Below are positions 1 to 30,361 of a DNA stretch of 33,079 nucleotides, piece after piece. The stretch is from the NCBI GenBank assembly GCA_036482575.1, contig JAZGJJ010000114.1, forward strand, positions 1-33,079, in the 5' to 3' direction. Source of the stretch: Thermodesulfobacteriota bacterium (GTDB lineage: Bacteria > Desulfobacterota > GWC2-55-46 > JAUVFY01). Every line of letters begins with the position of its first letter. The first letter of the stretch is position 1. The notes under the pieces are model-generated. The model saw nothing but the letters and a program-made list of their open reading frames with translations. It made no database searches and was not told the DNA's origin. A program made the position numbers and the translations under genes.

Positions 1-554
1 GGGGGCGTGGGGGCCGTGGGGGCCGTGGGGAGGGGGGAGGGGGCAACCGGCCCGTCCTCCCGCTTGTACACCCCCGGCGCGGTCTTCTCCGAGAGCCGCG
101 TCTCTATACTCCTCTCACTTATGGGCACGTCCGCGAGATCTATGAGCGCCTGGTCGCCATCGAGGAGCTTTACTATGTCCTGCTTCCTCCAGGTGTCCTC
201 CCAGTTGCCCACGAGCGCGTTCCAGACCTGCGCTATGGTGACGGCCTGGGCGTCGGTCAGCCCCTCCAGGGCCTTCTTGCCCCCGGCCTTCTCCACGGCT
301 ATGAGCCTCTTCATGTTGTGGACGACCACTATGAAGGGGGGGCCGCATCTGAAACAGTATTTGGTGATATTCTCGGCGCTGTGGCACTGGGTACACTTGG
401 TGTAGGCGAGTTCCTGAGCCTCCTCCAGCGTATACTCCATATGGCCCGCGGCCTTGAGCCAGCCAAGGGCATAGTCCCGGCCGAGGTATGACGACACGGC
501 AAGTACGGCTACAAAAGCAAGCGCTATATACGGTATTGCCCTTTTCACTTTCAT
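1..554 (-). CDS. Partial (3' end cut by window edge) membrane-anchored protein with one CxxCH motif, a second CxxC pair and a Pro/Thr-rich tail
   Basis: Absent from the supplied ORF track because there is no stop inside the window. Hand translation from ATG 554-552 gives MKVKRAIPYIALAFVAVLAVSSYLG...YTKCTQCHSAENITKYCFRCGPP...PVAPSPLPTAPTAPTP, open to nt 1. It has an N-terminal hydrophobic helix. CTQCH fits the haem-c attachment motif, but CxxC-x11-CxxC could also be a Zn ribbon. No clear SD. Confidence 0.5.
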   Translation of the reverse strand, partial: MKVKRAIPYIALAFVAVLAVSSYLGRDYALGWLKAAGHMEYTLEEAQELAYTKCTQCHSAENITKYCFRCGPPFIVVVHNMKRLIAVEKAGGKKALEGLTDAQAVTIAQVWNALVGNWEDTWRKQDIVKLLDGDQALIDLADVPISERSIETRLSEKTAPGVYKREDGPVAPSPLPTAPTAPTP

Positions 555-2897: not shown

Positions 2898-3959
2898 CTA
2901 CTTCCCGCTCAAAAGCGCCTGTTCCGAAGGGGCCAGCTTGATCGAGAGCCCGGCCTTCCCGCCGCCGCCCGAAATGAGCTTTGCGGTATCGACCATCCCG
3001 AGATTATGCTTGGCGACCTCCGTAAACCAGACGAGCCCCGACCCGCCCGCGGCTATGTCCACGGGCTTTCCCGAGGCCTTGGGAAGGTCTATCTCAAGAA
3101 AGCTCTTGCTCTTCGTGTCGAACCTCCCTATCCTCCCCCCCAGCGAATCACAGTACCAGAGCATTCCCTTCCGGTCGATTGCCAACCCTTCGGGGACCCT
3201 TTTCCCGGGCATATCGAACTCCTTAAAACTCCCCTTCGCCCCCTTAACCCCTTTCTCCAGGTCAAAGCGGACTATCTTATGGCTATTCCTTGCCCCGAAC
3301 CACAGGTAGCCGTCTCCGTCGGCCACGAGCTCCCCTGGTATGGCAAAGGGCGGCGAGATGGTAATCTCGGTTATCTTCCCGGTTTCCGGCTCCAGGCGCG
3401 CAATCTTATTCGCCTGCGACTCCACGAACCAGACCTCCCCCGAGTCCAGGGCCACGATCCCTACGGGCTGGCTCTGCTTGGTGGGGATGGAAAATTCCTT
3501 TATTTTAGAGGTCTTGGGGTCGAGCATGCCTATCTTATTCGCCATGAACTCGGTAAACCAGACCCTGCCATGTCCGTCGATTGCTATCTTATAGGCCTGG
3601 GATTTGGGTGTGGGTATCTCGACCTCCTCGAACTCGCCCGTTTTCGGGTCAAAAGAGCCTATCTGGTTCGCGTCCTGCTCGACGAACCAGATCCTGCCGT
3701 CCGGACCTATGGCCAGGTCTATCGGCACGCTCGAGGATGTGGGAATTTCGAACTCTTTGAAGACCGAAATTGAAGGCTGGAAGCGCACGAGCTTGTTGGC
3801 CCTGGCCTCCAGGAACCAGACGTTGCCCGATGGGTCCTCCGCCACGGCAACCGGGAAGGAGCGGGGGCTTGGGGCCGGATGCAACTCCACGCCGGAGCCC
3901 GCGAAGGAAGGGACCGCGAATGTCAGTATGAATAGCGTAATTAGCGGAAGGTTTCTCAT
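2898..3959 (-). CDS. Secreted seven-bladed beta-propeller, Vgb / streptogramin-lyase-like repeat family (COG4257-like)
   Basis: Signal peptide MRNLPLITLFILTFAVPSFA. Seven repeats of the G.(V/I)WF.E...NKIG..DP type (GNVWFLE, GRIWFVE, GRVWFTE, GEVWFVE, GYLWFGA, GMLWYCD, GLVWFTE). Confidence 0.85.
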   Translation of the reverse strand: MRNLPLITLFILTFAVPSFAGSGVELHPAPSPRSFPVAVAEDPSGNVWFLEARANKLVRFQPSISVFKEFEIPTSSSVPIDLAIGPDGRIWFVEQDANQIGSFDPKTGEFEEVEIPTPKSQAYKIAIDGHGRVWFTEFMANKIGMLDPKTSKIKEFSIPTKQSQPVGIVALDSGEVWFVESQANKIARLEPETGKITEITISPPFAIPGELVADGDGYLWFGARNSHKIVRFDLEKGVKGAKGSFKEFDMPGKRVPEGLAIDRKGMLWYCDSLGGRIGRFDTKSKSFLEIDLPKASGKPVDIAAGGSGLVWFTEVAKHNLGMVDTAKLISGGGGKAGLSIKLAPSEQALLSGK

Positions 3960-3965
3960 ATCAGC

Positions 3966-5207
3966 CTACTTCTGTGTCCTGCGGATAATATACCACAAAG
4001 CCGCCGCGAATAGAACGAAAACCACGATTGCGGCCGCCGCCTTGCCCGAGCCTCCGCCCCCTCCGCCCTCGCCGCCCTTAGCCTCCTCCGCAGGGGGAGG
4101 AGTATCCACCATCGCCGGGCCGGTATCCTCTGCCGGGGGCTCCTCCAGGGTCGTCTCTTCGACTGCCGGGACGAGCATCAAGATACTGTTGGCGTCCCTG
4201 TCGGACTCGGTAAGCCAGACCCTGCCGCGAGGGTCTACGGCTATGCCGCTCGGGAGGCTCCTGGGGGTGGGGATATCGTACTCCCTGAAGGTCGCGCTCC
4301 GGGGGTCGAAGCTGCCCACCTTGTTCCCCCTGTTCTCCACAAACCAGATAAGGCCGTCGGCACCCACGGCAAGGGCCACCGGCACAGAGGACACCTTGGG
4401 GATGGTCGCCTCGTTGAACTCCCCGGTGGCCGGGTCTAACATACCGATCTTATTGCCGTTCATCTCGACGAACCACACGCGGTCGTCGCTGTCGACGATA
4501 AGGTCCGCGGGGTTCACAAAGGGGTGCTGGATGAGGTATTCGGTCATCGAGCCGGCGGCCAGGTCGAGCTTTCCGATCTTATTGCCAACGGATTCGGCGA
4601 ACCAGACGACCCCGTTCGAATCCACGCTTATACCGTTAGGCTGGCTGTCCGGGGTGATGACGGCGTACTCCTCGAACTTCCCCTCCTTGAAGCGCCCGAT
4701 CTTATTGGCGTTCCTCTCGGTAAACCATACCGCGCCGTCCGGGGCCACGGCGATCTTATACGGCTCGGCCGCGGGGGTTGGGACCTTGAAGGTCTCCGTC
4801 TTGCCGGAGGCCGGAGATATGCGCCCTATGGAGTTCACCGCGGAGGAGACGAGCGTGAACCAGATCGTCCCGTCCGGGGCCGCGGTTATGTCCGCCGGGC
4901 TCGCGCCAGCGGGCAGGTCGAACTCCGTAAACTCCTCTTTTTCCGGGTCGAAGAGCCCTATCCTGTGCGTACTCTGCTCGGTGAACCAGATACGTCCCTC
5001 GCCGTCCGAGACTATGCCCAGGGGGTGGCTGAAGGGAGTAGGCAGGGGGTAGCCTTCCATTGTCGCACCGGCCACACCACCGTCGGATGCGGACGCACCG
5101 GGGAGGTGGAGGACCAGCACTATGGCCGCCGATATCAAACACGCCCTCATCACCAGGCGCGCCCTCATCGTGAGGTGGAATATGCCGTAAAACGGGGTTC
5201 TTAACAA
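3966..5207 (-). CDS. Vgb-like seven-bladed beta-propeller with Pro/Glu/Gly-rich linker and C-terminal transmembrane anchor
   Basis: Seven WF(T/V/A)E blades, then ...EEPPAEDTGPAMVDTPPPAEEAKGGEGGGGGGSGK plus the hydrophobic helix AAAAIVVFVLFAAALWYII-RRTQK. The start is ambiguous: TTG 5207, ATG 5168 or ATG 5150 (MRACLISAAIVLVLHLPGASA looks like the signal peptide). Confidence 0.85.
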   Translation of the reverse strand: MLRTPFYGIFHLTMRARLVMRACLISAAIVLVLHLPGASASDGGVAGATMEGYPLPTPFSHPLGIVSDGEGRIWFTEQSTHRIGLFDPEKEEFTEFDLPAGASPADITAAPDGTIWFTLVSSAVNSIGRISPASGKTETFKVPTPAAEPYKIAVAPDGAVWFTERNANKIGRFKEGKFEEYAVITPDSQPNGISVDSNGVVWFAESVGNKIGKLDLAAGSMTEYLIQHPFVNPADLIVDSDDRVWFVEMNGNKIGMLDPATGEFNEATIPKVSSVPVALAVGADGLIWFVENRGNKVGSFDPRSATFREYDIPTPRSLPSGIAVDPRGRVWLTESDRDANSILMLVPAVEETTLEEPPAEDTGPAMVDTPPPAEEAKGGEGGGGGGSGKAAAAIVVFVLFAAALWYIIRRTQK

Positions 5208-5214
5208 GAGAATG

Positions 5215-6180
5215 TCACCATGTAAAGGTAGGTTCGTAGTAGTGGCGCAGCTGCCAGTTGGCGTCCTTGTAGGACTGGGCCGCCCCGCCTATGGCGGCCT
5301 GGCCTTCGGTATCGACCTTGCCCGCCCTGAACTTACCGACATCTATCTGCCTCTGCCTCTCGACCCTGTAGTACTCGCCGACGTCCATGGGCGGCAGGTA
5401 CTGTCTCAGCCCGTAAGCCGGGGTGTGGCAGGCGATGCAGCCGTTGCCCTTGGCCGCGTAGCCGCTCGCGTAAATGCCCTGCAAGAGCAGGCAGAAGATC
5501 CCCACCGGAAGAGAGACGGCGAGAGCCCACTTCAAAACCCCCTTCTTGAGCCTGATCGCCTGCGGGACTACGAACACCGCCGCCAGGAGAATGAGCGCGG
5601 CTACGACGGCGATCGTACCGGACGTCTCGCCATCCTCTCCCAGGGTGGAAAAGTCGGCCCTGTAGAGGCTGTAGACGAATATACCGTAGACCAGGACAGA
5701 AAGGGCTATATTAACGCCCTTCCAGACACCCCCCCTGTCCGCGAGCCGTCCCCCTTTCTTGAATATAAAGGGCACGAGCACAAGGAACGTAAGGACCAGG
5801 GCCGGGATGAAAAAAGTGCCGAGAGAGAGCCACTTGACCGAATCGCCCGTAAGGTACCAGAACGGCTGGAGAAGCAGGAAGAAGTACCACTCCGGGGAGG
5901 GCACGTACATGCCCTCGTCCGGTAAGGCCATGTTGAAGTCCACGGGCACGCGGAAGAAGAAGGCCAGCGTCATCGCGATAAGCACGACCCCGCCCGCCAC
6001 AAGGAGGCCCTTTACGAAGTGGCGCGGCCAGTACTTATGGAACTCCTGGGGATACGGCGGCGCGTACCTGGGGTCGTTCACCTTCTCCTCTTCAGGCACC
6101 CCGGTTACCCCCGTTTCTTCAGCCGCCCCGGTTACCCCCTCTTCTTCAGGCACCCCGGTTGCCCCCTCTTCTTCAGCCAC
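5215..6180 (-). CDS. Cytochrome b C-terminal / b6f subunit-IV-like membrane protein fused to a C-terminal mono-haem c domain
   Basis: PEWY Qo-site motif (VPSPEWYFFLLLQPF), about five hydrophobic helices, then CIACH. The acidic N-terminus is encoded by a 27-nt tandem repeat. GTG start 1 nt after the upstream TGA. Confidence 0.88.
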   Translation of the reverse strand: MAEEEGATGVPEEEGVTGAAEETGVTGVPEEEKVNDPRYAPPYPQEFHKYWPRHFVKGLLVAGGVVLIAMTLAFFFRVPVDFNMALPDEGMYVPSPEWYFFLLLQPFWYLTGDSVKWLSLGTFFIPALVLTFLVLVPFIFKKGGRLADRGGVWKGVNIALSVLVYGIFVYSLYRADFSTLGEDGETSGTIAVVAALILLAAVFVVPQAIRLKKGVLKWALAVSLPVGIFCLLLQGIYASGYAAKGNGCIACHTPAYGLRQYLPPMDVGEYYRVERQRQIDVGKFRAGKVDTEGQAAIGGAAQSYKDANWQLRHYYEPTFTW

Positions 6181-7421: not shown

Positions 7422-7856
7422 TTACGAGGCGTACATGGAAGGGGTCTCATCGTACGTCTCGCCCGTGAAGTCTATCTTCCAGCTGTTCGACTCCTCGTCC
7501 ATCTCGAGATTTATGTCGGTCTGCGTTATGAAATAATCGTTGAACATCGAGGCTACCCTGTACTCTATGGTCACGACCGCTACGCCGTCTTCTACGGTGC
7601 TCCCGATTATCTTGACGTCCATGCCCTTGGGGTACTCCTTGACCATGTTCTTGAATATGTCTTCGTGCATCTCATAGTGCTTCTTGCTTATAAGCCTGTA
7701 TGCCTCGCCGAGCGTGGTGGTCCCGCCCTCCTCTACGTAGGCGTAGAACCTGGCAACCACTTCCTCGGGCGTCTCGGTGGGCTCTACGCCCCCCTTGCCG
7801 CAGGATACGACGGAGAGGGCCGCTATGAGCAGTATCGGAAAAAAACTCTTCAGCAA
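7422..7856 (-). CDS. Small lipoprotein, NTF2-like / DUF4878-like
   Basis: Lipobox LSVVS-C after a hydrophobic leader. TTG start with GAGGA SD. The family call is from overall resemblance only. Confidence 0.7.
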   Translation of the reverse strand: MLKSFFPILLIAALSVVSCGKGGVEPTETPEEVVARFYAYVEEGGTTTLGEAYRLISKKHYEMHEDIFKNMVKEYPKGMDVKIIGSTVEDGVAVVTIEYRVASMFNDYFITQTDINLEMDEESNSWKIDFTGETYDETPSMYAS

Positions 7857-7872
7857 ATTTTGTCCTCGCGGG

Positions 7873-7920
7873 TAAAAAAAATGTGTCCCGGCCGTTCAAC
7901 GGGAACGACCGGGACACATT
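7873..7920 (-). terminator. Strong rho-independent terminator after the NosZ-like gene
   Basis: Perfect 12-bp stem AATGTGTCCCGG (7880-7891) / CCGGGACACATT (7909-7920). The loop itself can pair (CGTTC/GAACG). A T-run follows on the minus strand (A-run 7874-7881 on plus). Confidence 0.85.
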
Positions 7921-7952: not shown

Positions 7953-9665
7953 TTAGAACCGCTCTACGCGGGCCGGAGCCGTGATCACCCCTGGTTCAAC
8001 CAGTTCTCTATGCTGCTGGGCTTCCTCGTAGTCACCGGTTACCAGGTTGGCCTGGCCCTTGGGACCGTCCACGAAGAACGTAGCCCTCATCTCCAGATGC
8101 AGCGGGCCGCAGAAGTGCTGGCAGAATATCTCGTACTCGCCGGCATAGTCCGCGACGAACTCGCTCATGATCGACATGCCCCTGTTGGCCGTGAGGTTCG
8201 TCCTCAGGCCATACGGACCGTAGATGGTGAAGCCCATCTGTACGTCCGGGTTCTTGGTGATACCCGCGGCCTTGTCGATGTTGGTGACGATTATCCTCAC
8301 CTTGTCGCCCTTGTTGACCCTTATCTGCCTGGGTACGTAGCCGTAGCTGAAGGCCTTGACGTGGACTTCCTTCACGCCGCCCTTCTCGACTATACCGGGC
8401 TTCCCCTTGTCCCTGGGAAGTATGGTGACCTTCGCGCTACTGCGGTGGGACGGATGGACCTCGGTGATGGGCTTCTTTATCAAGTTGACCGCCTGCCCCA
8501 TGTCCCACTGCTTGATCTTGCTGGCGAAGATGACCTTGGCGTTGTGGGGCTCGCCGTCGACAGGTATTATCCTGAGCGTCCTGCCGTAGGTCGGGCTCTT
8601 CTCGTCCACGTCCAGCATCTCGTGGTTCACGGGCCAACGGATGCCCGTGGGGCTCCACAGCCCTGTGGAGAACTTGTTCAGGGCAAAGACCTTGGTGTCG
8701 TCGGCGCTTATGGCGATGTGCCCGATCCTGTAGTGAATCGGGAACTCGTCGGCCACCGCGAGCTTCTCGAGGTCTATCTTGACGACGGCGTCCGCGACGA
8801 AGCAACTCGTGTAGGAATACCTGCCATCGCTCCTGAAGACGTTGTGGAGCGGACCGGCGCCCGCCGGTATGACCTTCTTAACCGCCAGCTTGTCCACGTC
8901 GATTATGGTTACCGTCGCGGAGAGCTTGTCGGCGACCTGTACGTACCTTCCGGTCGGAGAGACGTTCGTGCCGTGGGGGTTCTTACCAACCGGTATTTCC
9001 TTTATGAGCTTGAAGGGGTTGGTGGAGAAGACACCCACTGTGGAGTGGTAGTAGTTGCCTGAGAATACCATCTCCTTCCTGCCGGGCTTGCTGACGTCGA
9101 GGTAGTCCGGGGCGCTGGGCGCCGGGCCCCAGTCGATGATCTGGGCCTTGCCGGTCGCTATCTCGATCTTGGCCATCTTACCGGTATACTCGCCGGTGCC
9201 GTAGAGGAACTTGCCGTCCTGGGACATCGATATGTGATGTACCCCGAACGGGAACGGCAGGCCTATCAACCTCTCGAGCGTTCCGAGCTGCAGGTTGATG
9301 ACGCCGATGGTGTTGGAGCCCTTGTCGTTGACGTACATATACCTGCCGTCGGGCTTGAGGTTCGAACCGCCGGCGTTGGTCGGAGCGCTGAACAGGTTCT
9401 CGTGAAGGTCCACACCCACCGGTATATGACGGTAGGTCCTCATGCTTGGGACACCGATTACAGCCACCGCGCCGTCGAGGCCGCCAGCGTTATAGAGAAG
9501 CTGGTCGTCCTTCAGCGGAGCATCGTTGGGGCTCTTTTCGGTAACGTGCCAGTCCCTCGCATCCTTCTTTGCGGCAAAGGTTGCATCGGGCGCACCCGCG
9601 AAAACCACGAGCGCTATGGCTGCTGACAATAGACTTATCTTAGTTACTCGCACGTTTCTAGTCAC
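7953..9665 (-). CDS. nosZ: Divergent nitrous-oxide-reductase (NosZ)-like protein: Sec signal, beta-propeller, C-terminal CuA cupredoxin domain
   Basis: The C-terminus IVTNIDKAAG...DVQMGFTI...YEIFCQHFCGPLHLEM carries C-x3-C-x3-H-x2-M (nt 8088-8123) and parallels the NosZ TNID...HGF...C.WFC..LH.EM region. Propeller motifs VHHISMSQDGK, GKNPHGTNVSPTGRY...KLSATVTIID, GAGPLHNVF and IHYRIGH resemble NosZ CuZ-ligand blades. No twin-arginine in the leader. GTG 9665 abuts the SD, so GTG 9653 is a plausible alternative start. Confidence 0.75.
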   Translation of the reverse strand: MTRNVRVTKISLLSAAIALVVFAGAPDATFAAKKDARDWHVTEKSPNDAPLKDDQLLYNAGGLDGAVAVIGVPSMRTYRHIPVGVDLHENLFSAPTNAGGSNLKPDGRYMYVNDKGSNTIGVINLQLGTLERLIGLPFPFGVHHISMSQDGKFLYGTGEYTGKMAKIEIATGKAQIIDWGPAPSAPDYLDVSKPGRKEMVFSGNYYHSTVGVFSTNPFKLIKEIPVGKNPHGTNVSPTGRYVQVADKLSATVTIIDVDKLAVKKVIPAGAGPLHNVFRSDGRYSYTSCFVADAVVKIDLEKLAVADEFPIHYRIGHIAISADDTKVFALNKFSTGLWSPTGIRWPVNHEMLDVDEKSPTYGRTLRIIPVDGEPHNAKVIFASKIKQWDMGQAVNLIKKPITEVHPSHRSSAKVTILPRDKGKPGIVEKGGVKEVHVKAFSYGYVPRQIRVNKGDKVRIIVTNIDKAAGITKNPDVQMGFTIYGPYGLRTNLTANRGMSIMSEFVADYAGEYEIFCQHFCGPLHLEMRATFFVDGPKGQANLVTGDYEEAQQHRELVEPGVITAPARVERF

Positions 9666-9877: not shown

Positions 9878-9906
9878 AGAGTAGACTATCGGACCAATGT
9901 TGTCAA
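9878..9906 (-). promoter_or_regulatory. Sigma70-like promoter of the NosZ-like gene
   Basis: On the minus strand: TTGACA (9906-9901), 17 nt spacer, TACTCT (9883-9878), preceded by a T8 tract (UP-like). This implies a leader of about 200 nt. Confidence 0.5.
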
Positions 9907-11500: not shown

Positions 11501-14080
11501 TTAAAAAACGGTCCTGGTCTTGAGGATGGGAATGAGGGAGGCCTTTTCGGCCGGAAGGTTAAGGATATGCGCTACGACCTCGTGGGGCTTTACGCTTACC
11601 CCGTTTTCGATCCCGAGTCCAAGGGAGATGGTAAGGTCCCCCACATGGGAAATCTCTCCCACAAGGGGCCTTATATCGACTTCCTTTCGCTTTTTCTCCC
11701 TATCGAGGTGCAGTACTACGGAATCCATATCCAGAAAATCCCTCAAAATCCCATCAAGTCTTTTCGGCTCTATGTCCAAGCCCGCCGGGCCGTTTTTCAG
11801 AAATATAAGGAAGTTTTGCGCTCTCATAATAGCAGATAGGGAGGGGAGTTGCAAGGAAATATGCCTCCCCCCGGAAATCTTTATCCCTTCGGGCAGGGCG
11901 GCGTTAAACCGCTCCGCCACGGCCTCGACCGACAAGGGGACGCTGAGTTCGATATCCATGTACTCGTCGGCGCTTTCCACGCCCACGGGCAGCGGCGGGG
12001 AGAAGGCTATCTTCGGAAGAGGGTGGAACCCCCGTGAATAGCAGACCGGAAGCCCAGCCCTCCTTCCGGCCCTCGAGACGGCCTTTACAAGCTCCAGGTG
12101 GCCGAGGAACCTCATCTCCCCGGTCTTCGAAAATGATAGCCTGACCCTCGAACGTTCCTCCACGGCCAGCCTTTTTTTCCACTTCCCCTCCCCATCCCCC
12201 CGGTCCGGCCCGTCGGCAAAGAGCCTGTTCTTTATGAGCTTATGGTCGCATACCCCGCAGTCCGTGCACGGCCCGACCCTGCAGTCCGGGGTCTCCTCAA
12301 CGGAAAGGGACCTCTCCCTCTCCTCCAGGAGGAACTCCTTGGTCACACCCGGGTCGAGGTGGTCCCAGGGGAAGACCTCGTCGTCGGCCCGCCGCCTTTC
12401 GGTATAGAAGGCCATCTCGACCCCCACGGCGGAAAAAGCTTCATTCCAGGCCTCCCAGTCGAACTCCTCGCTCCAGCCGTCGAACCTGCAACCGGCCCTG
12501 AAAGCCTTTTCTATAACCGCCCCCAGCCGCCTGTCCCCCCTTGAGAAGACCCCTTCGAGAGTACTCATCCTCGCGTCGTGCCACTTAAAGCCGAGCCCGC
12601 GCTTCCTCGACTCCCTCTTTAGAAACTGGAGCCGCTCGACCGACGTCTTGAGCGGAAGCTGCGGCTCCCACTGGAACGGTGTAAAGGGTTTCGGGATGAA
12701 GGTCGCCGCACTCACGTTCACCTCAGGCGCCCCTCCCCTCCTCCTTCCCCCTCCCTCACCCCGGCCACCCCGGGCCCTGCGGCCCGCGTCCTTTACCTCC
12801 TTTGAGAGGCGTACGATCCCGGCGAGATCCTCCTCGGTCTCCGTGGGAAGGCCCATCATGAAGTAGAGCTTCATCGCCCGCCAGCCGAGAGAGAAAACCT
12901 CTTCGGCGCTGCGGATCAAGTCCGCCTCGTCGATACCCTTGTTTATAAGTTTCCGGAGCCTCTCGCTCCCGGCCTCCGGGGCGAGCGTAAAGCCGGTCTT
13001 CCTGACCTTCTTTATCTCCGAGGCCAGGGCCGTGCCGAGAGTACCTACCCTGAGCGACGGCAGGGACACCGCCACCCTCTCCTTTTCGAGCCGGTCCATG
13101 ATCGAGCACAGAAGCCCCTCTATGCACGAGTAGTCGCCCGTGCTGAGAGAGAGGAGCGAGACCTCTTCGTAACCGGTATTCTTAAGCGATTCGGTTATGA
13201 GCCTTACGATGCTTTCCGGGCTCCTCTCCCTCATGGGCCTTGTAATCATGCCTGCCTGGCAGAAGCGGCACCCCCTGGTGCATCCCCTGGAGACCTCGAC
13301 ACTCAGCCTGTCGTGTATGGTCCGGGGGAAGGGTACGACCGGCCTTACTGGCAACGGCAGCGCCTCGAGGTCCGGGGCCATCCTCTTCCCGACCCTGGAA
13401 TAGTCAGGGAAGAGCGGCTTAACCTCCCTTACGGTCGAGTCATCATTATATGCGGCCTCGAAGAACGACGGTACGTACACGCCACTCACCCCGGAGAGGG
13501 TCTTTAATATTTCTTCCCTCGACGCCCCGTTCTTTCTGCCCTCGATGACGGCCTCGGATATTTCGGTTACCGCCTCCTCTCCGTCGCCGAGGAGGAAGCA
13601 GTCGAAGAACTCGGCCACGGGCTCGGGGTTGAAGACGCACGGCCCGCCGCCTATGACGATCGGGTCGGCCTCTCCCCTCTCGCCTGCCTTAAGCGGTATG
13701 CCGCCGAGCTCGAGCATGTTCAAGACGTTGGTGTAGGAGAGCTCGTACTGGAGGGAGAAGCCCAGTATGTCGAACTCCCCCAGCGGCGTGCCGGACTCGA
13801 GGGTCACGAGCGGCAGCCCCTTCTCCCTCAAGAGCGCCTCCATGTCCTTCCACGGGGCAAAGACCCTCTCGCAGGCTATGTCCTCGTGAGAGTTCAGTAC
13901 CTGGTAGAGTATCTGTATGCCCAGATGGCTCATCCCCACCTCGTAGGTGTCCGGGAAGGCCATGGCGAACCGGAGGCTTACCTCCGCGGGGTCCTTCCTT
14001 ACGGAGTTGATCTCCCCGCCTATGTAGCGGCTGGGTCTCCTCACGAGCGGGAGATACTCTTTTATGTTATGAGTGGTCAT
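11501..14080 (-). CDS. B12-binding radical SAM protein fused to a DUF2344 (radical SAM-associated) domain, TIGR03960/TIGR03936-type
   Basis: CTRGCRFC (Cx3Cx2C). The C-terminal RVRLSFSKTGEMRFLGHLELVKAVSRAGRRAGLPVCYSRGFHPLPKIAF is DUF2344-like. Start moved to ATG 14080 (GAAGGAGAG SD; MTTHNIKEYLPLVRRPSRYIGGE). Confidence 0.9.
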   Translation of the reverse strand: MTTHNIKEYLPLVRRPSRYIGGEINSVRKDPAEVSLRFAMAFPDTYEVGMSHLGIQILYQVLNSHEDIACERVFAPWKDMEALLREKGLPLVTLESGTPLGEFDILGFSLQYELSYTNVLNMLELGGIPLKAGERGEADPIVIGGGPCVFNPEPVAEFFDCFLLGDGEEAVTEISEAVIEGRKNGASREEILKTLSGVSGVYVPSFFEAAYNDDSTVREVKPLFPDYSRVGKRMAPDLEALPLPVRPVVPFPRTIHDRLSVEVSRGCTRGCRFCQAGMITRPMRERSPESIVRLITESLKNTGYEEVSLLSLSTGDYSCIEGLLCSIMDRLEKERVAVSLPSLRVGTLGTALASEIKKVRKTGFTLAPEAGSERLRKLINKGIDEADLIRSAEEVFSLGWRAMKLYFMMGLPTETEEDLAGIVRLSKEVKDAGRRARGGRGEGGGRRRGGAPEVNVSAATFIPKPFTPFQWEPQLPLKTSVERLQFLKRESRKRGLGFKWHDARMSTLEGVFSRGDRRLGAVIEKAFRAGCRFDGWSEEFDWEAWNEAFSAVGVEMAFYTERRRADDEVFPWDHLDPGVTKEFLLEERERSLSVEETPDCRVGPCTDCGVCDHKLIKNRLFADGPDRGDGEGKWKKRLAVEERSRVRLSFSKTGEMRFLGHLELVKAVSRAGRRAGLPVCYSRGFHPLPKIAFSPPLPVGVESADEYMDIELSVPLSVEAVAERFNAALPEGIKISGGRHISLQLPSLSAIMRAQNFLIFLKNGPAGLDIEPKRLDGILRDFLDMDSVVLHLDREKKRKEVDIRPLVGEISHVGDLTISLGLGIENGVSVKPHEVVAHILNLPAEKASLIPILKTRTVF

Positions 14081-14263
14081 ATACTCTCCTTCTCTGCAAT
14101 CCCCGATTCCCGCCTCCGGCATGACAAAGCATAGATACCGGATCAAGCCTGTCGTGAGTTCATCGAACGGTCCGGTATGACAGAAATGTGTATGCGGTCT
14201 TCTGTAACGTTAGCAACATCTATTGCGGCCGATAGTTTCTAAATTTGAACCGCCCTCAGGGTG

Positions 14264-15847
14264 TTAGCAGACACCGCACCTGAAGCAGCTCCCCACCTCG
14301 CACGGGGGGGTGGTCTTACCTTCGAGCCCTCGTTGGTACTCGTCCCAGAGGTAGCCGCGTTCGAGGCCGTGGTCCACGACCTCCCAGGGGAAGGGCTCGT
14401 CAACACCCCTCTCCCTGTGGACGCACTCTTCGGCCAGGGGGGCAGGATGGTCGGCGGACCTAAGCGCGCGCCTGAGACCCACCTTCGAGGCCTCGGCTAT
14501 CACCCTCCCCGCCCTCCTGTCCGCCCTCGAAAGGTAGGCCTGCGCAAAGGCCTTCCGAACGGAGAGGGTTTTAACGTCGATACCCCCCTCTCTCTTGAGC
14601 ATCTCCTTTATAATGGAGTACCTCTTCTCTATCGTCTCGACCCTCTCGAAGGGGTGCCACTGGAACGGGGTAAAGGGTTTTGGCATAAAGGGGTTAATGC
14701 TGAGCGTCAGCTTACCCTTGCCCATGAGTTTCTTTAGCCTTAGAGAAAGCTCCCCTATGGCACGGGCGTCGGCGTCGGTCTCGGTCGGGAGCCCCACCAT
14801 GAAGTAGAGCTTCAGTTTCCTGAAACCCGCTTCCTTTACAAGTCTTATTGCTTCGTCTATCTCGCTGTCGCTTATATCCTTATTTACGACTCGCCTGAGT
14901 CTCTCCGTCCCGGCCTCCGGGGCGAGCGTAACGGTCCTGTAGCCGGCCTTCTTAAGGAGGTCGAGAAGCTCGGCATCGAGCATATCGAGCCGGAGTGAGG
15001 AGAGCGTCATCTCTCTACCCCCCTCTATCCCGAGCCTCAGGAGTTCTTTCAGGTGCGGGTACTCGGAGACCGCCGCCCCCACGAGCCCCACCTTGCCGCT
15101 TTCCCGAAAGCCCCTCTCCACGATCTCCTTAACCGGGCCGAGCTCCCTCATACGCGGCGGCAGATAGATAAAGCCCGCCGCGCAAAACCTGCATCCCCGG
15201 CCGCAGCCCCTCTCGACCTCCAGGAGCGTCGCGCTGCCGAACTCGGTTGCCGGGGTCAACACGACGCTTTCGGGCACGGGCGAGAGGTCGGTATCTGCCC
15301 TGGCCCTCGTTACCCTCTCCGGCGCGCCGGGGGCGGCCTTTATCGAGGCCACCCGTGGGCCGTCGTAGGTGAACTCATAGAGGGCCGGCACGTAGACTCC
15401 CTCTATCCCTGCGAGCGATTCAAGACCCCCTTCTTCCCCCCCCTGCCCCCCTTCCCCGACGGCTTCGATAAACGGCCCGACCATCCCCTCGGCCTCTCCT
15501 ATGAAGCAGAGGTCCATGAACTCGGCCACGGGCTCGGGGTTAAGGGATACGGCGCAGCCCCCTGCCATAACGAGCGGGTGGGCCCGGCCCCTCTCAATCG
15601 AGAAGAGCGGCACCCCGGCAAGCGCGAGTATGCGGGGGATGTTTATAAAGTCCTCCTCGAAAGAGACCGAGAAGGCGATTATGTCGAAGCGTTCGAGCGG
15701 GGTCTGCGACTCGAGGGAGAAAAGTTTTTCCCCGCTCTTTTCGAACTCCCGGAGCTCGTCCTTATCCGGCAGGAACGCCCTCTCGCACGCGCAGACCTCA
15801 AGGTCGTTAAAGAGCCGGTAGAGCGTCTGGAAGCCGAGGTTGCTCAT
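14264..15847 (-). CDS. B12-binding radical SAM protein, paralogue of 11501-14080 without DUF2344
   Basis: CGRGCRFC motif and a C-terminal CEVGSCFRCGVC. The conserved N-terminal strand (RVRVCLVYPNAYSLG) lies in frame upstream of ATG 15847, so the real 5' end is probably near 15970 (see findings). Confidence 0.85.
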   Translation of the reverse strand: MSNLGFQTLYRLFNDLEVCACERAFLPDKDELREFEKSGEKLFSLESQTPLERFDIIAFSVSFEEDFINIPRILALAGVPLFSIERGRAHPLVMAGGCAVSLNPEPVAEFMDLCFIGEAEGMVGPFIEAVGEGGQGGEEGGLESLAGIEGVYVPALYEFTYDGPRVASIKAAPGAPERVTRARADTDLSPVPESVVLTPATEFGSATLLEVERGCGRGCRFCAAGFIYLPPRMRELGPVKEIVERGFRESGKVGLVGAAVSEYPHLKELLRLGIEGGREMTLSSLRLDMLDAELLDLLKKAGYRTVTLAPEAGTERLRRVVNKDISDSEIDEAIRLVKEAGFRKLKLYFMVGLPTETDADARAIGELSLRLKKLMGKGKLTLSINPFMPKPFTPFQWHPFERVETIEKRYSIIKEMLKREGGIDVKTLSVRKAFAQAYLSRADRRAGRVIAEASKVGLRRALRSADHPAPLAEECVHRERGVDEPFPWEVVDHGLERGYLWDEYQRGLEGKTTPPCEVGSCFRCGVC

Positions 15848-17000: not shown

Positions 17001-17720
17001 TTAAACAGCAATTGCCCGTGGCATTTCGTCCCATGTTCTACCTTCAAGCTCCCGCCCGTTTTTCTTTTTATTCATGCCGCCCCACTGTTTGAAGAAGAAA
17101 GGGACCCCTGCCTTCATACATTGATTGCGAATGTCGATTGCCCATAACGGGTCCATTGGGCGCGCTCTCGGGCCTGATTCACCCCCAACAATCACCCAAT
17201 CGATTCCCTTTAAATTTAGTCGATATATCGGTCCCAAAAGGGGCTCAATGGAAATAAATTTTATCGCCCCCTTTGTTTTACGGAGGTGGTCTATACGAAA
17301 AGTATAGTCCTGGTTCTCTACGCTAACCCCCGTCCAGATATGCGTGTCCAACGGCAAGCGTGGACTTAGTTCAAGTAGTCGGTCAGACCTCTTGGTAAGC
17401 ACTTGAAAGCGATGCCAATTTGCCTGCCTCATCACATCGAATACCTTAAATATAAATTCGTCCGGGACATCCTCGTGGAAGAGATCGCTCATAGAATTTA
17501 CAAAAACGGTCTGGGGTTTTTTCCACAAAAGAGGCAACTCTAATGCATGCCCATGCACAGTTGTTTTAAAGCCGTTGGTGTAGTTAGGCTGTCCCATAGC
17601 CTTGAGTCGTTTCGCCATTCGTTCGGCGTAACAGTGTTTACAGCCAGGACTAATCTTTGTACACCCCGTCACAGGGTTCCATGTGGATTCAGTCCATTCG
17701 ATAGATGAGTTTGCCGCCAT
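17001..17720 (-). CDS. Phage Gp37/Gp68 family protein (DUF5131), three-Cys motif
   Basis: [65 protein letters not shown] and FFFKQWGG are all hallmark blocks of the family. Confidence 0.9.
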
Positions 17721-18562
17721 TACATCATTCCCCGCCTACGGTATTTACTGAAAATATCTCCAACAATTTTACCACCGGTCGGATTCTGAGTGGCAAAAAA
17801 AAGGTAGTAAACAATACTTCCCTTGGTATTTCTCATGGCTATAGGTTCGGGAACATACCCAAAGCCAGCCACTTTCTTCAAGCGCTCTTGATACGCTTTT
17901 GTAAGCATCCTAATATCCTCTTTTCTTTCTTCTTCCGCACCAAACAGGTCCATTTCTTTAGTATACGCTATTTCCCTCCAAGATTCATCCCCCCAAAAAG
18001 CGTTCATTCTCTCTATGTGAGCCGGGCCTACGGTATCCAGCTTATGCTTGAGCACATTCATATTCATATCCATAACTGGAAAGTTCAACAATATTTCCAT
18101 GCTTTTACATTTCCCTGCGGCCTCAACAACTTTCCAGTTCAGATGTAATCCATATGGGTCGAGCAAGCAAAGACCCCTTTCAAACTTCTCGTAGCGCACC
18201 TTCGGAAAGACTTTCTCTAACAAAACCAAATTGCAATCGTCCACATAGTAGTGAACATCCGCTCTGTCCCCTACCAGATCTTTTAAGACGTTCACCTTAT
18301 TTTTGTTCTTGTCTATAAAGTGATACTCACGGAATGGAGTATCTATGTAAAGAGTTCTGATGGGGCTTCCAGAAATCGACTTTCCCGTGGTTTTTGAGAC
18401 ATGCATGCCGGCACCGGCAAAAGCATCTATGTAAATGTGATAAAAACCCTTTTGGGCCGACATAATCTTTGAGAATGCCGCAGCATACTCCTTGATAATA
18501 TTAAGCTTGATCTCGGACCAGTAACCAATTTCATCAAACTTCAACCCCGACTTCTTAACCAT
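17720..18562 (-). CDS. tcmP: Three-Cys-motif partner protein TcmP (methyltransferase-like Rossmann fold)
   Basis: Sits adjacent to and overlaps DUF5131 by 1 nt (TAATG). Motifs [22 protein letters not shown] and LLDPYG occur in class-I methyltransferase order. Confidence 0.8.
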
Positions 18563-18607
18563 GCCAACCCCTTAGTCTTGTCCGAAGCCATAAATCACCG
18601 CCGCTCT

Positions 18608-18961
18608 TCAGTCCACCTTATACGGGCAGTCGCTCATTGATACGCAAAAGCCGTGGTTCGCCGCGCATATCGTAATACAGACGTCATGCCACTCCGCGTC
18701 CACTTCGAAGACGCCGTCGTCATCCCCAGCCGCGGCCGCTGCCGCCTCCGCCTCTATTATCCGCTCCGCCCCGACATACCCGCCGAGGTTTATCCCCTTC
18801 TCGAACGCTATGGGGTCCTTGCTTGCAAAGCCGCCCGTCTCGGGGTCGTAGTAGCTCGCGCGGTAGTAGTAGAGCCCGGCCTCCCGGTTCCACTCCCTTT
18901 TTATACGGGTATACACCAACATGGGGACGCTTTCCGTGCTTTTGCTTATCACAGTCGACAT
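18608..18961 (-). CDS. Orphan RHS repeat-associated core fragment with a short Cys-rich tail (probable gene remnant)
   Basis: REWNREAGLYYYRASYYDPETGGFASKDPIAFEKGINLGGYV matches the end of RHS/YD cores. There are no YD repeats upstream and no DPxGL. The tail is CITICAANHGFCVSMSDCPYKVD. Confidence 0.7.
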   Translation of the reverse strand: MSTVISKSTESVPMLVYTRIKREWNREAGLYYYRASYYDPETGGFASKDPIAFEKGINLGGYVGAERIIEAEAAAAAAGDDDGVFEVDAEWHDVCITICAANHGFCVSMSDCPYKVD

Positions 18962-24277: not shown

Positions 24278-25671
24278 CAGGCCGTCTCCTTCCTGCGCTT
24301 TTCCTTCAAGAGGTCGAGCAGCCCCTCACCGGCCTTCCAGACGTCCCCGGCGCCGAGCGTTATGACCATGTCGCCCGCCCTTACACTGTCGACGAGGCGG
24401 GCCGGCACCTCGCTCAAATCCTTTACGAAAGATACGTCCTTGTGCCCGTGCTCCTTTACGGCACGGTAGAGTTTTTCGGCCGAAGCGCCGCCAGAGTGCT
24501 TCTCCCCGGCCGAGTAGGTCTCGGTAAGCACGAGCTTCTCCGCGTCGTTAAAGGCGGGGATGAACTCGGTGAAGAGGTCTCTGGTCCTCGAGTGCCTGTG
24601 CGGCTGAAACACCACGACGAGCCTCCTCTTCCAGCCCGCCCTGGCGGCCTTAAGGACCGCCTTTATCTCGACCGGGTGGTGCCCGTAGTCGTCCACCACC
24701 ATGACGTCCCTCTCAATCCCCTTTATCTGGAACCTTCTCTCCACACCGGCGAAGCCCTCGAGCCCGGCCCTTATCTCGTCGAACCCTATATCGAGCTCCC
24801 TTGCCACGGCCACGGCCGCCAGCGCGTTCTGGACGTTGTGCTCGCCCGGTATCCCCATCACGACCGACCCCAGACGCCTCGCCTCGGCCCGGACCTCGAA
24901 AGATATCTTCCCGCCCTTCTGCTCCACCCCGACGGCATGCACGTCCGCCTGGGTGGAAAGACCGTAGGATATGAACCTGCGGCCCACCGAAGGCAAAAGC
25001 TCCTGTATGGCCGGGTGGTCGAGGCAGAGGACCGCGCAGCCGTAGAACGGCACCTTGTTTATGAACTCCAGGTAGGACGCCTTGATCTCGCTCATGTCGT
25101 TGTAATAGTCCATGTGCTCGCGGTCTATGCTCGTCACCACCGCTATGGTGGGTGCAAGTTTCAAGAAAGTCCCGTCGCTCTCGTCGGCCTCGGCCACGAG
25201 GAACTCGCCGCTCCCGAGCCTCGCGCTCGTGCCTATGGAGTTGAGCTTCCCTCCGACGACCATTGTGGGGTCCATCCCGGAGTGCGCCATTATCGCGGCT
25301 ATCATCGAGGTGGTGGTGGTCTTGCCGTGCGTACCGGCTACGGCTATGCCGTGCTTCATCTTCATAAGCTCGGCGAGCATTTCGGCCCTGGGGATTATGG
25401 GTATCTGCCTCTGCGCGGCCTCTTTAAGCTCCGGGTTGTCGGGCCCGACCGCCGAGGAGTAGACCACACAGTCCGCGCCCTCCACGTTCTCCTTCTTGTG
25501 CCCACGGTGTATTACGGCCCCGAGAGCTTCGAGCCTCTTTGTCGTCTCCGAGGACGCGAGGTCCGAGCCCGAGACCCGGTAGTCGAGAGTCAGGAGCACC
25601 TCGGCTATGCCGTTCATGCCGCTGCCCCCTATGCCGACGAAGTGCACCTTTTTTATCCTGCCCCTGTACAT
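24277..25671 (-). CDS. murC: UDP-N-acetylmuramate--L-alanine ligase
   Basis: [39 protein letters not shown]. Confidence 0.95.
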
Positions 25672-26765
25672 CAGCCCCGCTCCTCTCCGGCCAGAACTTT
25701 TACGTAGTCATCCGCTATAGTAGCCGCGGCCCCGGGCCTCCCGAGCCCCTTTACCTCTTCCCTCATCCTCTTAAGCTCCCGGCGGTCCTCGAAGAACCCC
25801 CTTATAACGCGCGCGAGCGTGGAGCCGGTGAGCTCGTCCTGCCTTATCATAACGGCAGCACCACTATCGGCCAGGCACCTTGCGTTCACCTCCTGATGGC
25901 CGTCGGTGGCAAAGGGGTAGGGCACGAGAATGGCCGGCAGCCCCAGGGCCGTTATCTCCGCGATGCTCGTGGCCCCGGCCCTGCACACCACCAGGTCGCT
26001 CGATGCGTAGGTCTCCGCCATGTTTTCTATGAAGCTGTGCAGCTCCACCTTGAGCCCCTTCCTCGAGTAGGCGGCCTTGGCCGCCCCCAGACCCTCGTAG
26101 CCGGTCTGGTGTACCACCCGGAGCGAACTCCAGATGTCGGTCAGGTATTCGGTGGCGTCCAGGAAGGCCGCGTTTATGGGCGTGGCCCCCTGGCTCCCGC
26201 CGAATACGAAGATGTTGAGCTTGCCGTTGCTCTTCCTTACCTCCCCGGCCCTGGCCTCGATTATGTCCCGCCTAACGGGGTTCCCTGCCATTACGACCCG
26301 GGCGGCGGGGAAATAAGCTGCGACGTCCTCGAAAGCTATGTACACCCTGTCAACGAACCTCCCGAGCAGTTTATTCGTAAGGCCGGGCACCGCGTTCTGC
26401 TCGAGTATCGCGGTCTTTATACCCATAAGCTTCGCTGCCAGCACGACGGGCCCCGAGGCGTAGCTGCCCGAGCCTATCACCCCGTCGGGCCGTATCTTCC
26501 TTAAGAGCCCCAAGGAGCTAACCGTGGCCCCGACCGCCCTGTAGAGCGCCTTTACCAGACCGAGCCCCCTCCTCTTTTTAATGGCCTCCACCCGGAGGAC
26601 CTCAAGCTCGTAGCCGTAGCCGGGCACGACCTTCTCCTCGAGCCCCCCCCTTCCGCCTATGAACGTTATCTCGGTAGTCCGGTCCCGCCTCGTAAACTCT
26701 TCGGCGAGGGCGAGCGCGGGGAAGAGATGCCCCCCGGTGCCGCCCCCCGCTATCACAAGCCTCAA
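25671..26765 (-). CDS. murG: Undecaprenyldiphospho-muramoylpentapeptide beta-N-acetylglucosaminyltransferase
   Basis: [23 protein letters not shown]. Start set at TTG 26765 (AAGGAGG 7 nt upstream, in frame). The 652-aa track ORF would overlap ftsW. Confidence 0.92.
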
Positions 26766-26782
26766 CCCCGTACCTCCTTGGT

Positions 26783-27895
26783 TCAAGCCTCGTTGGACTT
26801 CATATATACGTTCAACATTATACCGACCGCGGCCATGCTCACCACAAGCGAGGTGCCGCCGTAGCTTATAAAGGGGAGCGTAAGCCCCTTTGGCGGAAGC
26901 ATCCCGAGCACCACGGCCATATTGACCGCGGCCTGCATAACGAGCATGAGCGTAAGGCCGAGCACCAGGTATGTCCCGAAGAGGTCGGAGGCCCTCAAGG
27001 CTATCCTCACCCCGCTGACAAGGAAGAGTATATAGAGGGCTATTATCATACCGACCCCCACAAGCCCCATCTCCTCGCCTATGACCGAGAATATGAAGTC
27101 CGTATGCGCCTCCGGCAGGTACAGCAACTTCTGTTTTCCCTCCCCGAGCCCCACGCCCCATATACCCCCGGAACCGAACGCTATGAACGACTGGACTATC
27201 TGAAAGCCCGCGCCGCTGGGGTCCTTCCAGGGGTCCAGGAAAATCATTATCCTCTTCGTCATATAGCCGAACTTCGTTACCACCAGGTAGAGGACCGGCA
27301 GCGCCGCCACCACGAGGCCGGCGAGATAGGTGACCCTCACCCCGGCGGCGAAGTTCATAATAAGCACCAGTATGGCGAGCGTGACCGCCGTGCCGAAGTC
27401 CGGCTCGGCCATTATGAGCGCCACGATCACGCCCGGTATGAGCACGTTCGGGAGAAAGCCGGTTGAAAAATCCTTTACCCCCTCCCCCCTCGATGCAAGC
27501 GAATAGGCGAGGAATACGACCACCGCCGGCTTCGCGAACTCGGAGGGCTGAAAGGTGAACCCGCCGAGATTGACCCACCGCCTCGCGCCACCCACCTCGT
27601 GGCCGAAGGCCGGGACGAATATAAGACACAGAAGAAACGCCGCCAGCAGAAGTATCGGATAGGCGAGCTTCCGGTAGATCCCGTATGGAATGCGCGTCGA
27701 GAAAACAAACAGCACCAGACCGGCAAGGGCGAAGCTCAAGTGCCGCTTCAAGAAGAAGTACTCGCTCCCGAACTTCTTCATGCCCACCACGAAGCTCGTC
27801 GAGTAGACCATGACCACCCCGGCCGTGACCAGAAGGAGGGTGCTGGCTATAAGCAGCTTATCCACTTCTTTCGTCCCTACCATCGCCGTCCTCAC
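26783..27895 (-). CDS. ftsW: Peptidoglycan glycosyltransferase FtsW (SEDS family)
   Basis: Polytopic membrane protein. Blocks PSEFAKP, LQPDFG-like (AEPDFGT), LPEAHTDFIF and GLTLPFISYGGTS. Confidence 0.93.
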   Translation of the reverse strand: MRTAMVGTKEVDKLLIASTLLLVTAGVVMVYSTSFVVGMKKFGSEYFFLKRHLSFALAGLVLFVFSTRIPYGIYRKLAYPILLLAAFLLCLIFVPAFGHEVGGARRWVNLGGFTFQPSEFAKPAVVVFLAYSLASRGEGVKDFSTGFLPNVLIPGVIVALIMAEPDFGTAVTLAILVLIMNFAAGVRVTYLAGLVVAALPVLYLVVTKFGYMTKRIMIFLDPWKDPSGAGFQIVQSFIAFGSGGIWGVGLGEGKQKLLYLPEAHTDFIFSVIGEEMGLVGVGMIIALYILFLVSGVRIALRASDLFGTYLVLGLTLMLVMQAAVNMAVVLGMLPPKGLTLPFISYGGTSLVVSMAAVGIMLNVYMKSNEA

Positions 27896-30348: not shown

Positions 30349-30361
30349 CCCCTCTCCTTAT
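30349..30361. repeat. 13-bp direct repeat, copy 1 (CCCCTCTCCTTAT), at the mraY-proximal edge of the insertion
   Basis: Identical to 31602-31614. It contains the mraY SD and the TAA stop of the 260-aa ORF. Confidence 0.9.

Follow-up and report, generated by a model that had tools for sequence, protein, structure and literature searches.

The window analysed here, a complete public contig of 33,079 bp (JAZGJJ010000114.1) from an uncultured Thermodesulfobacteriota bacterium, carries a nosZ-like gene whose 570-residue product combines a lactonase-type β-propeller with a C-terminal cupredoxin domain. Between 33 kb and 0.6 kb, all genes lie on the minus strand. Upstream of nosZ are RNase G, two radical-SAM genes and the dcw cluster (murF to ftsZ), and nosZ itself heads a conserved same-strand cluster encoding a lipoprotein, a split cytochrome b, two NHL-type propellers and five c-type cytochromes (Table 1). 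The contig ends 7.9 kb downstream of nosZ, inside this cluster. These data are best explained by a gene for a clade III lactonase-type nitrous-oxide reductase (L-NosZ), which we regard as the probable reading. The open reading frame (ORF) described in a first-pass annotation of this DNA exists, and every sequence block quoted there was found in its translation (VHHISMSQDGK, GKNPHGTNVSPTGRY..KLSATVTIID, GAGPLHNVF, IHYRIGH and TNID...CQHFCGPLHLEM).

Homology to NosZ and placement in clade III

The nosZ-like ORF is real and is homologous to NosZ along its entire length. In Pfam the protein matches YNCE (PF21783, 6e-17), Lactonase (PF10282, 3e-12), nos_propeller (PF18764, 2e-8) and Cupredoxin_1 (PF13473, 4e-6), i.e. 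the pairing of a lactonase/YncE-type propeller and a cupredoxin that characterizes clade III. A single-sequence search of the Protein Data Bank (PDB) returned only NosZ at the top (E ~1e-29), aligned mainly over residues 219–533, and a profile built from 44 family members extended the NosZ match to the N-terminal blades. Profile–profile alignment to seven canonical NosZ sequences with hhalign gave a probability of 100% and an E-value of 1.1e-62 across 464 columns, running from the N-terminal blades to the C-terminus, with all ligand columns and the N-terminal GG..G.V.V.G.PSMR motif aligned. The AlphaFold 2 (AF2) model (mean pLDDT 83.2, pTM 0.84) contains 28 strands, arranged as seven sets of four, with a β-sandwich after them. 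When this model was compared with the PDB by Foldseek, as the first-pass annotation had proposed, the top 50 matches were all NosZ chains (~600 columns, E ~1e-31); their TM-score of ~0.51 and root-mean-square deviation of 16 Å probably reflect a different placement of the cupredoxin in the monomer model.

The first-pass annotation had itself raised the scenario of a generic YVTN/lactonase propeller joined by chance to a cupredoxin and unrelated to NosZ. The top Pfam propeller matches are indeed YNCE and Lactonase rather than NosZ propeller models, and the S-layer YVTN protein 1l0q was also matched in the PDB search. The full-length profile–profile alignment with its aligned ligand columns, together with structural matches that are NosZ exclusively, nevertheless excludes such a fusion, to which we assign a negligible probability.

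Within the NosZ superfamily the protein scores by far the highest on NF052460.1, the curated NCBIfam equivalog "clade III lactonase-type nitrous-oxide reductase (L-NosZ)", at 695.9 bits (E 2e-209), 4 bits below the cut-off of 700. Its scores on the clade II (TIGR04246, 187.8 bits) and clade I (TIGR04244, 148.5 bits) models are far under their cut-offs of 625 bits each. On NF052460.1 the Desulfitobacterium type (P0123) reaches 914 bits, and further homologues score 825 (P0043), 790 (L017), 754 (L050), 674 (P0016) and, in Nitrospinota, 616 bits (L066); the closest relatives of the window protein, 78–81% identical to it, score 733 (P0002) and 722 (P0007). Since the scores of the subgroup span 616–825, the 700-bit threshold cuts through one coherent set of sequences. 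According to a MiDAS preprint, the discovery study screened proteins of 400–900 aa for the motifs CX2FCX3HXEM, DXHH/GXHH, PHG, GPLH and EPH. All of these motifs occur in the 570-aa window protein, as CQHFCGPLHLEM (residues 515–526), GVHH (141–144), PHG (230–232), GPLH (271–274) and EPH (372–374).

The phylogenetic placement called for in the first-pass annotation was provided by a neighbour-joining distance tree (492 columns, no bootstrap), in which the protein lies in the L-NosZ clade among Thermodesulfobacteriota sequences. Its large group also holds Nitrospinota (including DRJW01), Nitrospirota, and Alpha-, Beta-, Gamma- and Zetaproteobacteria, and its sister is the Desulfitobacterium type; clades I and II fall outside. 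A 2024 study names DRJW01 as a member of a lactonase-type nosZ-like group, describes the family as "lactonase domain nosZ-like genes", and reports expression of such a gene alongside denitrification genes in groundwater (PMC11033732). The new N2O-reducing family, clade III L-NosZ, is credited to He et al. (Nature 2025;646:152), as cited in PMC13477213, PMC13502197 and PMC13454781; the first of these describes, for clade III metagenome-assembled genomes, cytochrome and transporter neighbours and an absence of canonical nos accessory genes. By motifs and tree, and with an NF052460.1 score just under the cut-off, the window protein falls in this known clade. The gene is a typical and unremarkable member, from a phylum already among the listed carriers, and its compact size, Sec leader and missing classical nos helper genes are known clade III traits rather than signs of a new enzyme type. 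The first-pass annotation had offered three readings: an unusual N2O reductase lineage with different maturation, a NosZ-derived enzyme with another substrate, or an electron-transfer protein. The first agrees with the clade III literature, but it is no novelty, having been published in 2025 and given a curated NCBIfam model.

Metal ligands and the case for N2O reduction

Residue conservation was assessed in 120 database protein homologues and in the 76 intact genes among 80 genome loci. Ten propeller histidines are invariant in all members of both samples (120/120 and 76/76), and among them are the seven of the CuZ site, H88, H143, H144, H231, H274, H316 and H374, for which the codons were also checked. 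Alignments to Pseudomonas stutzeri NosZ pair H88 with His129, H143 with His178, H231 with His326, H274 with His382, H316 with His433 and H374 with His494, while the invariant E89 stands at the position of His130, and H144 at that of Gly179. In the AF2 model, the CuZ histidines open strands 87–92, 142–147, 230–235, 272–277, 317–319 and 375–380, one strand in each of six of the seven blades. Judged from these alignments, the protein retains the count of seven, with the doubled histidine shifted from blade 1 to blade 2. A third CuZ histidine that the first-pass annotation had found missing, for want of an HG motif after the HH pair, turns out to be a register error: GVHH had been taken for the canonical HH, but it aligns with His178 rather than with His129/130, and the real blade-1 ligand is the histidine of DLHE. 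The compactness of the protein comes largely from the loss, seen in the alignments, of a ~40-residue insertion before the canonical HH and of long insertions between blades 2–4.

The ligand scoring proposed by the first-pass annotation gave a complete CuZ set and a partial CuA set. Compared with His583, Cys618, Trp620 (carbonyl), Cys622, His626 and Met629 of P. stutzeri, five of the six CuA positions are compatible. The CxxFCxxxHxEM loop is intact, with C515, C519, H523 and M526 invariant in both samples, and residue 517, at the backbone-carbonyl position of Trp620, is His here and mostly His (87%) in the subgroup. The sixth position, that of His583, is occupied by Met477. Histidine is kept there in the Desulfitobacterium type (PMHGF), in P0129 and in all canonical NosZ, and the cupredoxin domain contains no other histidine that is invariant among the 120 homologues. 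In canonical NosZ, His583 is thought to gate electron transfer to CuA.

Clade I NosZ (P. stutzeri, PDB 3SBP), which provides the best PDB sequence and structure matches, shares its fold and metal-site architecture with the window protein. The latter is ~27% identical to it, ~70 residues shorter, and differs by the absence of a twin-arginine leader, by the His130-to-Glu and His583-to-Met replacements and by a gene neighbourhood lacking nosR and nosDFYL. Clade II NosZ (TIGR04246) resembles it in Sec export, two-domain fold, CuA loop and six of seven aligned CuZ histidine columns, and in its association with c-type cytochromes and membrane quinol-oxidizing modules; the two differ in sequence (~26–30% identity), in the pre-HH and inter-blade insertions that the window protein lacks, in the HH pair, which here lies in blade 2, and in nosB, nosD, nosF, nosY and nosL, none of which accompanies the window gene. 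The nearest known system is clade III L-NosZ, with the Desulfitobacterium enzyme as its named member. That enzyme and the window protein are both lactonase-type seven-bladed propellers with a cupredoxin, of ~530–600 aa, carry a Sec or lipoprotein leader and the motifs GXHH, PHG, GPLH, EPH and CX2FCX3HXEM, and have a glutamate (E89) where canonical NosZ has His130 and one more histidine beside the His178 equivalent. They differ in that the window protein has Met477 for the CuA histidine, preceded by a six-residue insertion (AAGITK), and His517 rather than Tyr at the Trp620 position.

Several points weigh against N2O reduction by the window protein. Activity should not be taken as proven, chiefly because Met477 replaces a first-sphere CuA ligand, and methionine occupies this position in 120/120 homologues and 76/76 loci of the subgroup. 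The activity is moreover transferred by homology from a protein only 42–44% identical, the Desulfitobacterium nosdiversum enzyme (UniRef P0DXY7, WP_425804335.1), which lies within the L-NosZ clade and is the sole identified member with the curated name "Nitrous-oxide reductase". The claims of He et al. are taken second-hand from citing papers, and the NF052460.1 score falls just short of its cut-off. A convergence of the seven histidines at the propeller hub is suggested by alignment and strand periodicity, and no CuZ sulfur- or copper-delivery system was identified.

The same features could be read differently. The Met477 subgroup, which spans Thermodesulfobacteriota, Nitrospinota, Nitrospirota, and Alpha-, Beta-, Gamma- and Zetaproteobacteria, might be a NosZ-derived copper enzyme with another substrate or with markedly different electron/proton gating, its label having been borrowed from the His-containing Desulfitobacterium type. 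Uniform methionine at the His583 position, the absence of canonical NosDFYL near the window gene, the modest identity to the UniRef-named enzyme and NF052460.1 scores that straddle the cut-off all fit this idea. It must, however, accommodate the invariance across phyla of all seven CuZ histidines and of the remaining CuA loop, which is hard to explain without a CuZ-type site. Changes at the corresponding histidine are also reportedly tolerated in engineered CuA azurin. The clade III motif screen, in the form relayed by the MiDAS preprint, has no motif for His583, which suggests that the clade III authors accepted Met-type sequences as L-NosZ, and the groundwater study found a lactonase-type nosZ-like gene co-expressed with denitrification genes (PMC11033732). 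On balance we consider a different substrate or gating unlikely, and a clade III nitrous-oxide reductase remains the preferred reading.

Another alternative would make the protein a degenerate NosZ-like pseudo-enzyme with an electron-transfer or structural role, for which there are precedents among family paralogues (P0121/L052, P0127 and P0145). The window protein retains every CuZ histidine as well as C515, C519, H523 and M526, and clusters in the tree with intact rather than degenerate sequences, which makes a pseudo-enzyme very improbable.

Of these degenerate L-NosZ paralogues, P0121/L052 of Nitrospinota (~1140 aa) has neither the HH pair nor the CuA cysteines and is extended at its C-terminus by ~580 aa; among shorter forms, P0127 lacks the HH pair and the EPH histidine, and P0145 nearly all propeller histidines. 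Hidden Markov model screens for clade III nosZ that omit a motif check would score such proteins as N2O reducers.

No biological sink for the greenhouse gas N2O other than NosZ is known to us, which is why a third clade of the enzyme is of importance. This point was made in 2025, and the window gene adds one more uncultured Thermodesulfobacteriota carrier. Our analysis contributes a ligand map in which, as far as alignments tell, a compact enzyme keeps seven CuZ histidines with one moved from blade 1 to blade 2. The CuA His-to-Met replacement, invariant in the environmental subgroup examined, bears on how reliably N2O-sink potential is read from metagenomes. A third addition is a defined set of conserved neighbours as candidate electron donors and maturation factors.

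The conserved cluster and the proposed pathway

Table 1. Coordinates of nosZ, its regulatory features and the downstream cluster in the 33,079-bp window, in order of transcription. Fractions give the genome loci with the neighbour among those with enough downstream DNA (80 genome loci in all).
Feature	Positions	Strand	Observations
Promoter-like site	9878..9906	-	TTGACA (9906-9901), 17-nt spacer, TACTCT (9883-9878); consensus match; ~210 nt upstream of start codon
L-nosZ ORF	7953..9665	-	570 aa from GTG 9665; NF052460.1 match over profile 1-479/480
Predicted Sec-type signal peptide, aa 1-31	9573..9665	-	read from translation; putative cleavage after TFA
Seven-bladed lactonase-type β-propeller, aa ~53-385	8511..9509	-	Pfam YNCE, Lactonase, nos_propeller; AF2 strands
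C-terminal cupredoxin (CuA) domain, aa ~430-533	8067..8378	-	Pfam Cupredoxin_1; alignments to P. stutzeri NosZ
Met477 codon at canonical CuA His583 position	8235..8237	-	DVQMGF vs DVSHGF of P. stutzeri (alignments)
Intrinsic-terminator-like hairpin	7872..7920	-	18-bp stem at 7920..7880, 10 G-C pairs, 5-nt loop, then T7
Lipoprotein, 144 aa, NTF2-like	7422..7856	-	lipobox SVVSC; directly downstream of L-nosZ; same strand in 46/76 loci
Cytochrome b, b6-like N-terminal half, 210 aa	6693..7325	-	two His pairs for two b-haems; Pfam Cytochrome_B 2e-40; 40/73 loci
Mono-haem cytochrome c, 163 aa	6182..6673	-	CVPCH; own signal peptide
Cytochrome b subunit-IV-like membrane protein	5215..6180	-	PEWYF motif; C-terminal CIACH haem-c site; 37/69 loci
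Secreted NHL/Vgb-lyase-type β-propeller 1, 413 aa	3966..5207	-	Pfam Vgb_lyase 3.5e-92; NCBIfam far below cut-off; 38/66 loci
Secreted NHL/Vgb-lyase-type β-propeller 2, 353 aa	2898..3959	-	syntenic in 37/64 loci
Di-haem cytochrome c, 233 aa	2083..2784	-	CGGCH + CYGCH
Mono-haem cytochrome c, 123 aa	1651..2022	-	CSQCH
Cytochrome c, 313 aa	625..1566	-	CIACH; most widely conserved neighbour, 40/54 loci
Membrane-anchored CxxCH protein	1..554	-	CTQCH; cut by contig end; 193 aa in duplicate record L086

Pfam and NCBIfam scans of ~30 ORFs of the window matched none of the canonical nosD, nosF, nosY, nosL, nosR and nosB genes, in agreement with the first-pass annotation. Its further statement that electron-donor genes are lacking is correct for the canonical ones but misleading otherwise, since the same strand goes on to encode a di-haem cytochrome b, a subunit-IV-like c-haem protein and another five CxxCH proteins. 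The gene order of this cluster is syntenic in the closest relatives, and large parts of it recur among the 80 genome loci. A homologue of the 313-aa cytochrome c directly follows L-nosZ in Gallionella, Nitrosomonadales and Zetaproteobacteria, and the Desulfitobacterium L-nosZ is followed directly by a cytochrome b and then by a subunit-IV-like CxxCH protein, 29% identical to its window homologue. Because this cytochrome-rich block is syntenic in dozens of genomes across many phyla, and partly even in Desulfitobacterium, nosZ is not an orphan and candidate electron donors are abundant. Neither the window gene nor that of Desulfitobacterium is adjoined by nosDFYL, nosR or nosB. The remainder of the two clusters differs: the window has the NTF2-like lipoprotein, two NHL propellers, several c cytochromes and (in relatives) a GldAFG-like ABC transporter, whereas Desulfitobacterium has a YtkA/FixH-like protein, MacB/FtsX-type ABC transporters, a BNR propeller and a NapC/NirT-type cytochrome.

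Split cytochrome b modules of the b6f/Bacillus bc type comprise QcrB and QcrC, the latter a subunit IV–cytochrome c fusion. The downstream pair resembles such modules in its b6-like four-helix cytochrome b and in a PEWY-bearing subunit-IV-like protein with a C-terminal CxxCH. It differs in that the subunit-IV-like protein matches no Pfam or NCBIfam model, and in that no Rieske protein was found by a six-frame motif search of the window or among the proteins encoded in the syntenic clusters examined. Given that result, which again counts against the proposed physiology, a quinol-oxidizing role of the cytochrome b module can be suggested rather than asserted. The subunit-IV-like protein also bears an acidic N-terminal repeat (EEEG[AV]TG, three copies) and a ~65-aa extra membrane insertion relative to its 234-aa orthologues, and its start codon is uncertain.

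The first cytochrome c of the cluster is joined, in six close relatives from one subclade (L001–L005 and L012), behind a ~320-aa NosD-like parallel β-helix (Pfam NosD, Beta_helix), e.g. at L001:12657-14000, L002:7946-9274 and L003:10587-12017. The L002 fusion protein scores 74 bits on TIGR04247 (NosD), whose cut-off is 300. A fusion between a NosD-like domain and a cytochrome c has, as far as we know, not been described. In the window, which contains no β-helix domain, and in four relatives (L008, L009, L011 and L057) the cytochrome stands alone. A deletion or assembly artefact as the cause of the missing domain was rejected, as these four relatives are alike, the window ORF begins with a signal peptide of its own, and only the six loci carry the fusion. 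In relatives the cluster runs on into genes for an ABC ATPase, an ABC-2 permease and a GldG-like ABC_transp_aux/DUF7088 protein, and the window ends just before these. The standard nos cluster just outside the window, which the first-pass annotation had named as a refuting condition, has no counterpart in these relatives, whose GldA/F/G-like genes stand there instead of nosDFYL. An identification of the ABC genes as NosF and NosY was rejected: they most resemble GldA (316 bits against a cut-off of 403) and GldF (154 bits against 288), and no NosF or NosY model was matched. Both NHL propellers (2898-5207) are syntenic with L-nosZ in Thermodesulfobacteriota, Nitrospinota, Nitrospirota, Alphaproteobacteria and Magnetococcales, and could be maturation factors or redox partners.

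If the protein is a clade III nitrous-oxide reductase, Sec would export it in an unfolded state, and it would acquire its copper in the periplasm and form the usual head-to-tail dimer. N2O would be reduced to N2 at a CuZ-type tetranuclear copper-sulfide centre held by H88, H143, H144, H231, H274, H316 and H374. Electrons may pass from the quinol pool to the di-haem cytochrome b encoded downstream and to its partner, the subunit-IV-like haem-c protein, and then through the mono- and di-haem c cytochromes to a CuA site formed by C515, C519, H523, M526 and M477. CuZ assembly would have to proceed without NosDFYL, and candidates for this role are the lipoprotein, the two NHL propellers and the GldAFG-like ABC transporter of relatives. 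Beyond the assignment itself, we tentatively propose, as a speculation with the odds against it, that the Met477 subgroup runs N2O reduction or a related reaction with a His583-less CuA and an uncharacterized CuZ assembly machinery drawn from the downstream cluster (NTF2-like lipoprotein, two NHL propellers, GldAFG-like ABC transporter and, in some lineages, the NosD-like β-helix–cytochrome c fusion).

Expression signals, gene start and remaining features of the window

The promoter-like site and the strong terminator-like hairpin that the first-pass annotation had assigned to nosZ are both present (Table 1). The -10 hexamer TACTCT matches the consensus at three of six positions, and a promoter scan made no call there; TTGACA-17-TATTCT and TTGACA-18-TATTCT occur upstream of the orthologues in L002 and L001, respectively. 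An equivalent hairpin with a T-run is found at the same place in at least 10 relatives (L001, L002, L003, L005, L008, L009, L011, L012, L015 and L057). From the promoter-like site and the terminator-like hairpin, a mostly separate nosZ transcript can reasonably be expected: nosZ would be transcribed largely alone, with the hairpin setting a high ratio of nosZ to downstream mRNA. The stems of the relatives differ, loop-proximal parts included, yet share an ATGTCCC...GGGACAT-type core (L001–L015, L057), a hint that they form a conserved RNA element and are not independent terminators. An Rfam scan over the entire window gave no match, and hence no known RNA element in the ~210-nt leader.

Three in-frame starts come into question for nosZ. 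GTG 9665 gives the 570-aa protein, GTG 9653 gives 566 aa and is also the start called in a duplicate record, and the NCBI entry (MEE9614303.1) begins at TTG 9629 with 558 aa. Since the Shine-Dalgarno sequence AGGAGGAGG (9673-9665) overlaps GTG 9665 and is better spaced for GTG 9653, the latter appears the likelier start. The N-terminus, MTRNVRVTKISLLSAAIALVVFAGAPDATFA followed by AKKD, reads as a charged n-region, a hydrophobic core and a cleavage site between TFA and A, and AF2 places a helix of low pLDDT at residues 5–24. No twin-arginine (RR) motif was found on reading this N-terminus. The leader thus looks Sec-type, and the description of a compact, Sec-type protein lacking a twin-arginine leader holds.

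The duplicate record, L086, is 100% identical to the window over 12,366 bases and has only 33 extra bases, so it is not independent and stops short of the expected ABC genes. Both public records end at the same G+C-rich stretch (window 1-60; L086:12280-12399), which encodes the Pro/Thr/Ala-rich tail of the last gene. As the assembly break falls in this stretch, the remainder of the cluster is hidden.

Two low-GC stretches interrupt the region upstream of nosZ. The first (17001-18961, 46–50% against ~60%) lies between ftsZ and the radical-SAM genes. It encodes a DUF5131 protein that weakly matches 'radical SAM mobile pair protein A', along with a TcmP-family protein and a short Rhs-core fragment, and resembles a mobile insertion. 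The second (30358-31596, ~48–50%) lies between murF and mraY, an unusual interruption of the normally tight dcw cluster, and codes for a 148-aa DUF488 protein and for a protein of 260 aa with no family match. The radical-SAM genes (11501-15847, minus strand) are a tandem pair of the B12-binding TIGR03960 type, the first fused to a TIGR03936 domain and the second (527 aa) below the family cut-off. Finally, a 652-aa ORF (25671-27629, minus strand) matches MurG only at residues 290–640 and overlaps a 370-aa ORF (26783-27895) that is probably ftsW; the longer ORF probably has an over-extended start rather than being a fusion.

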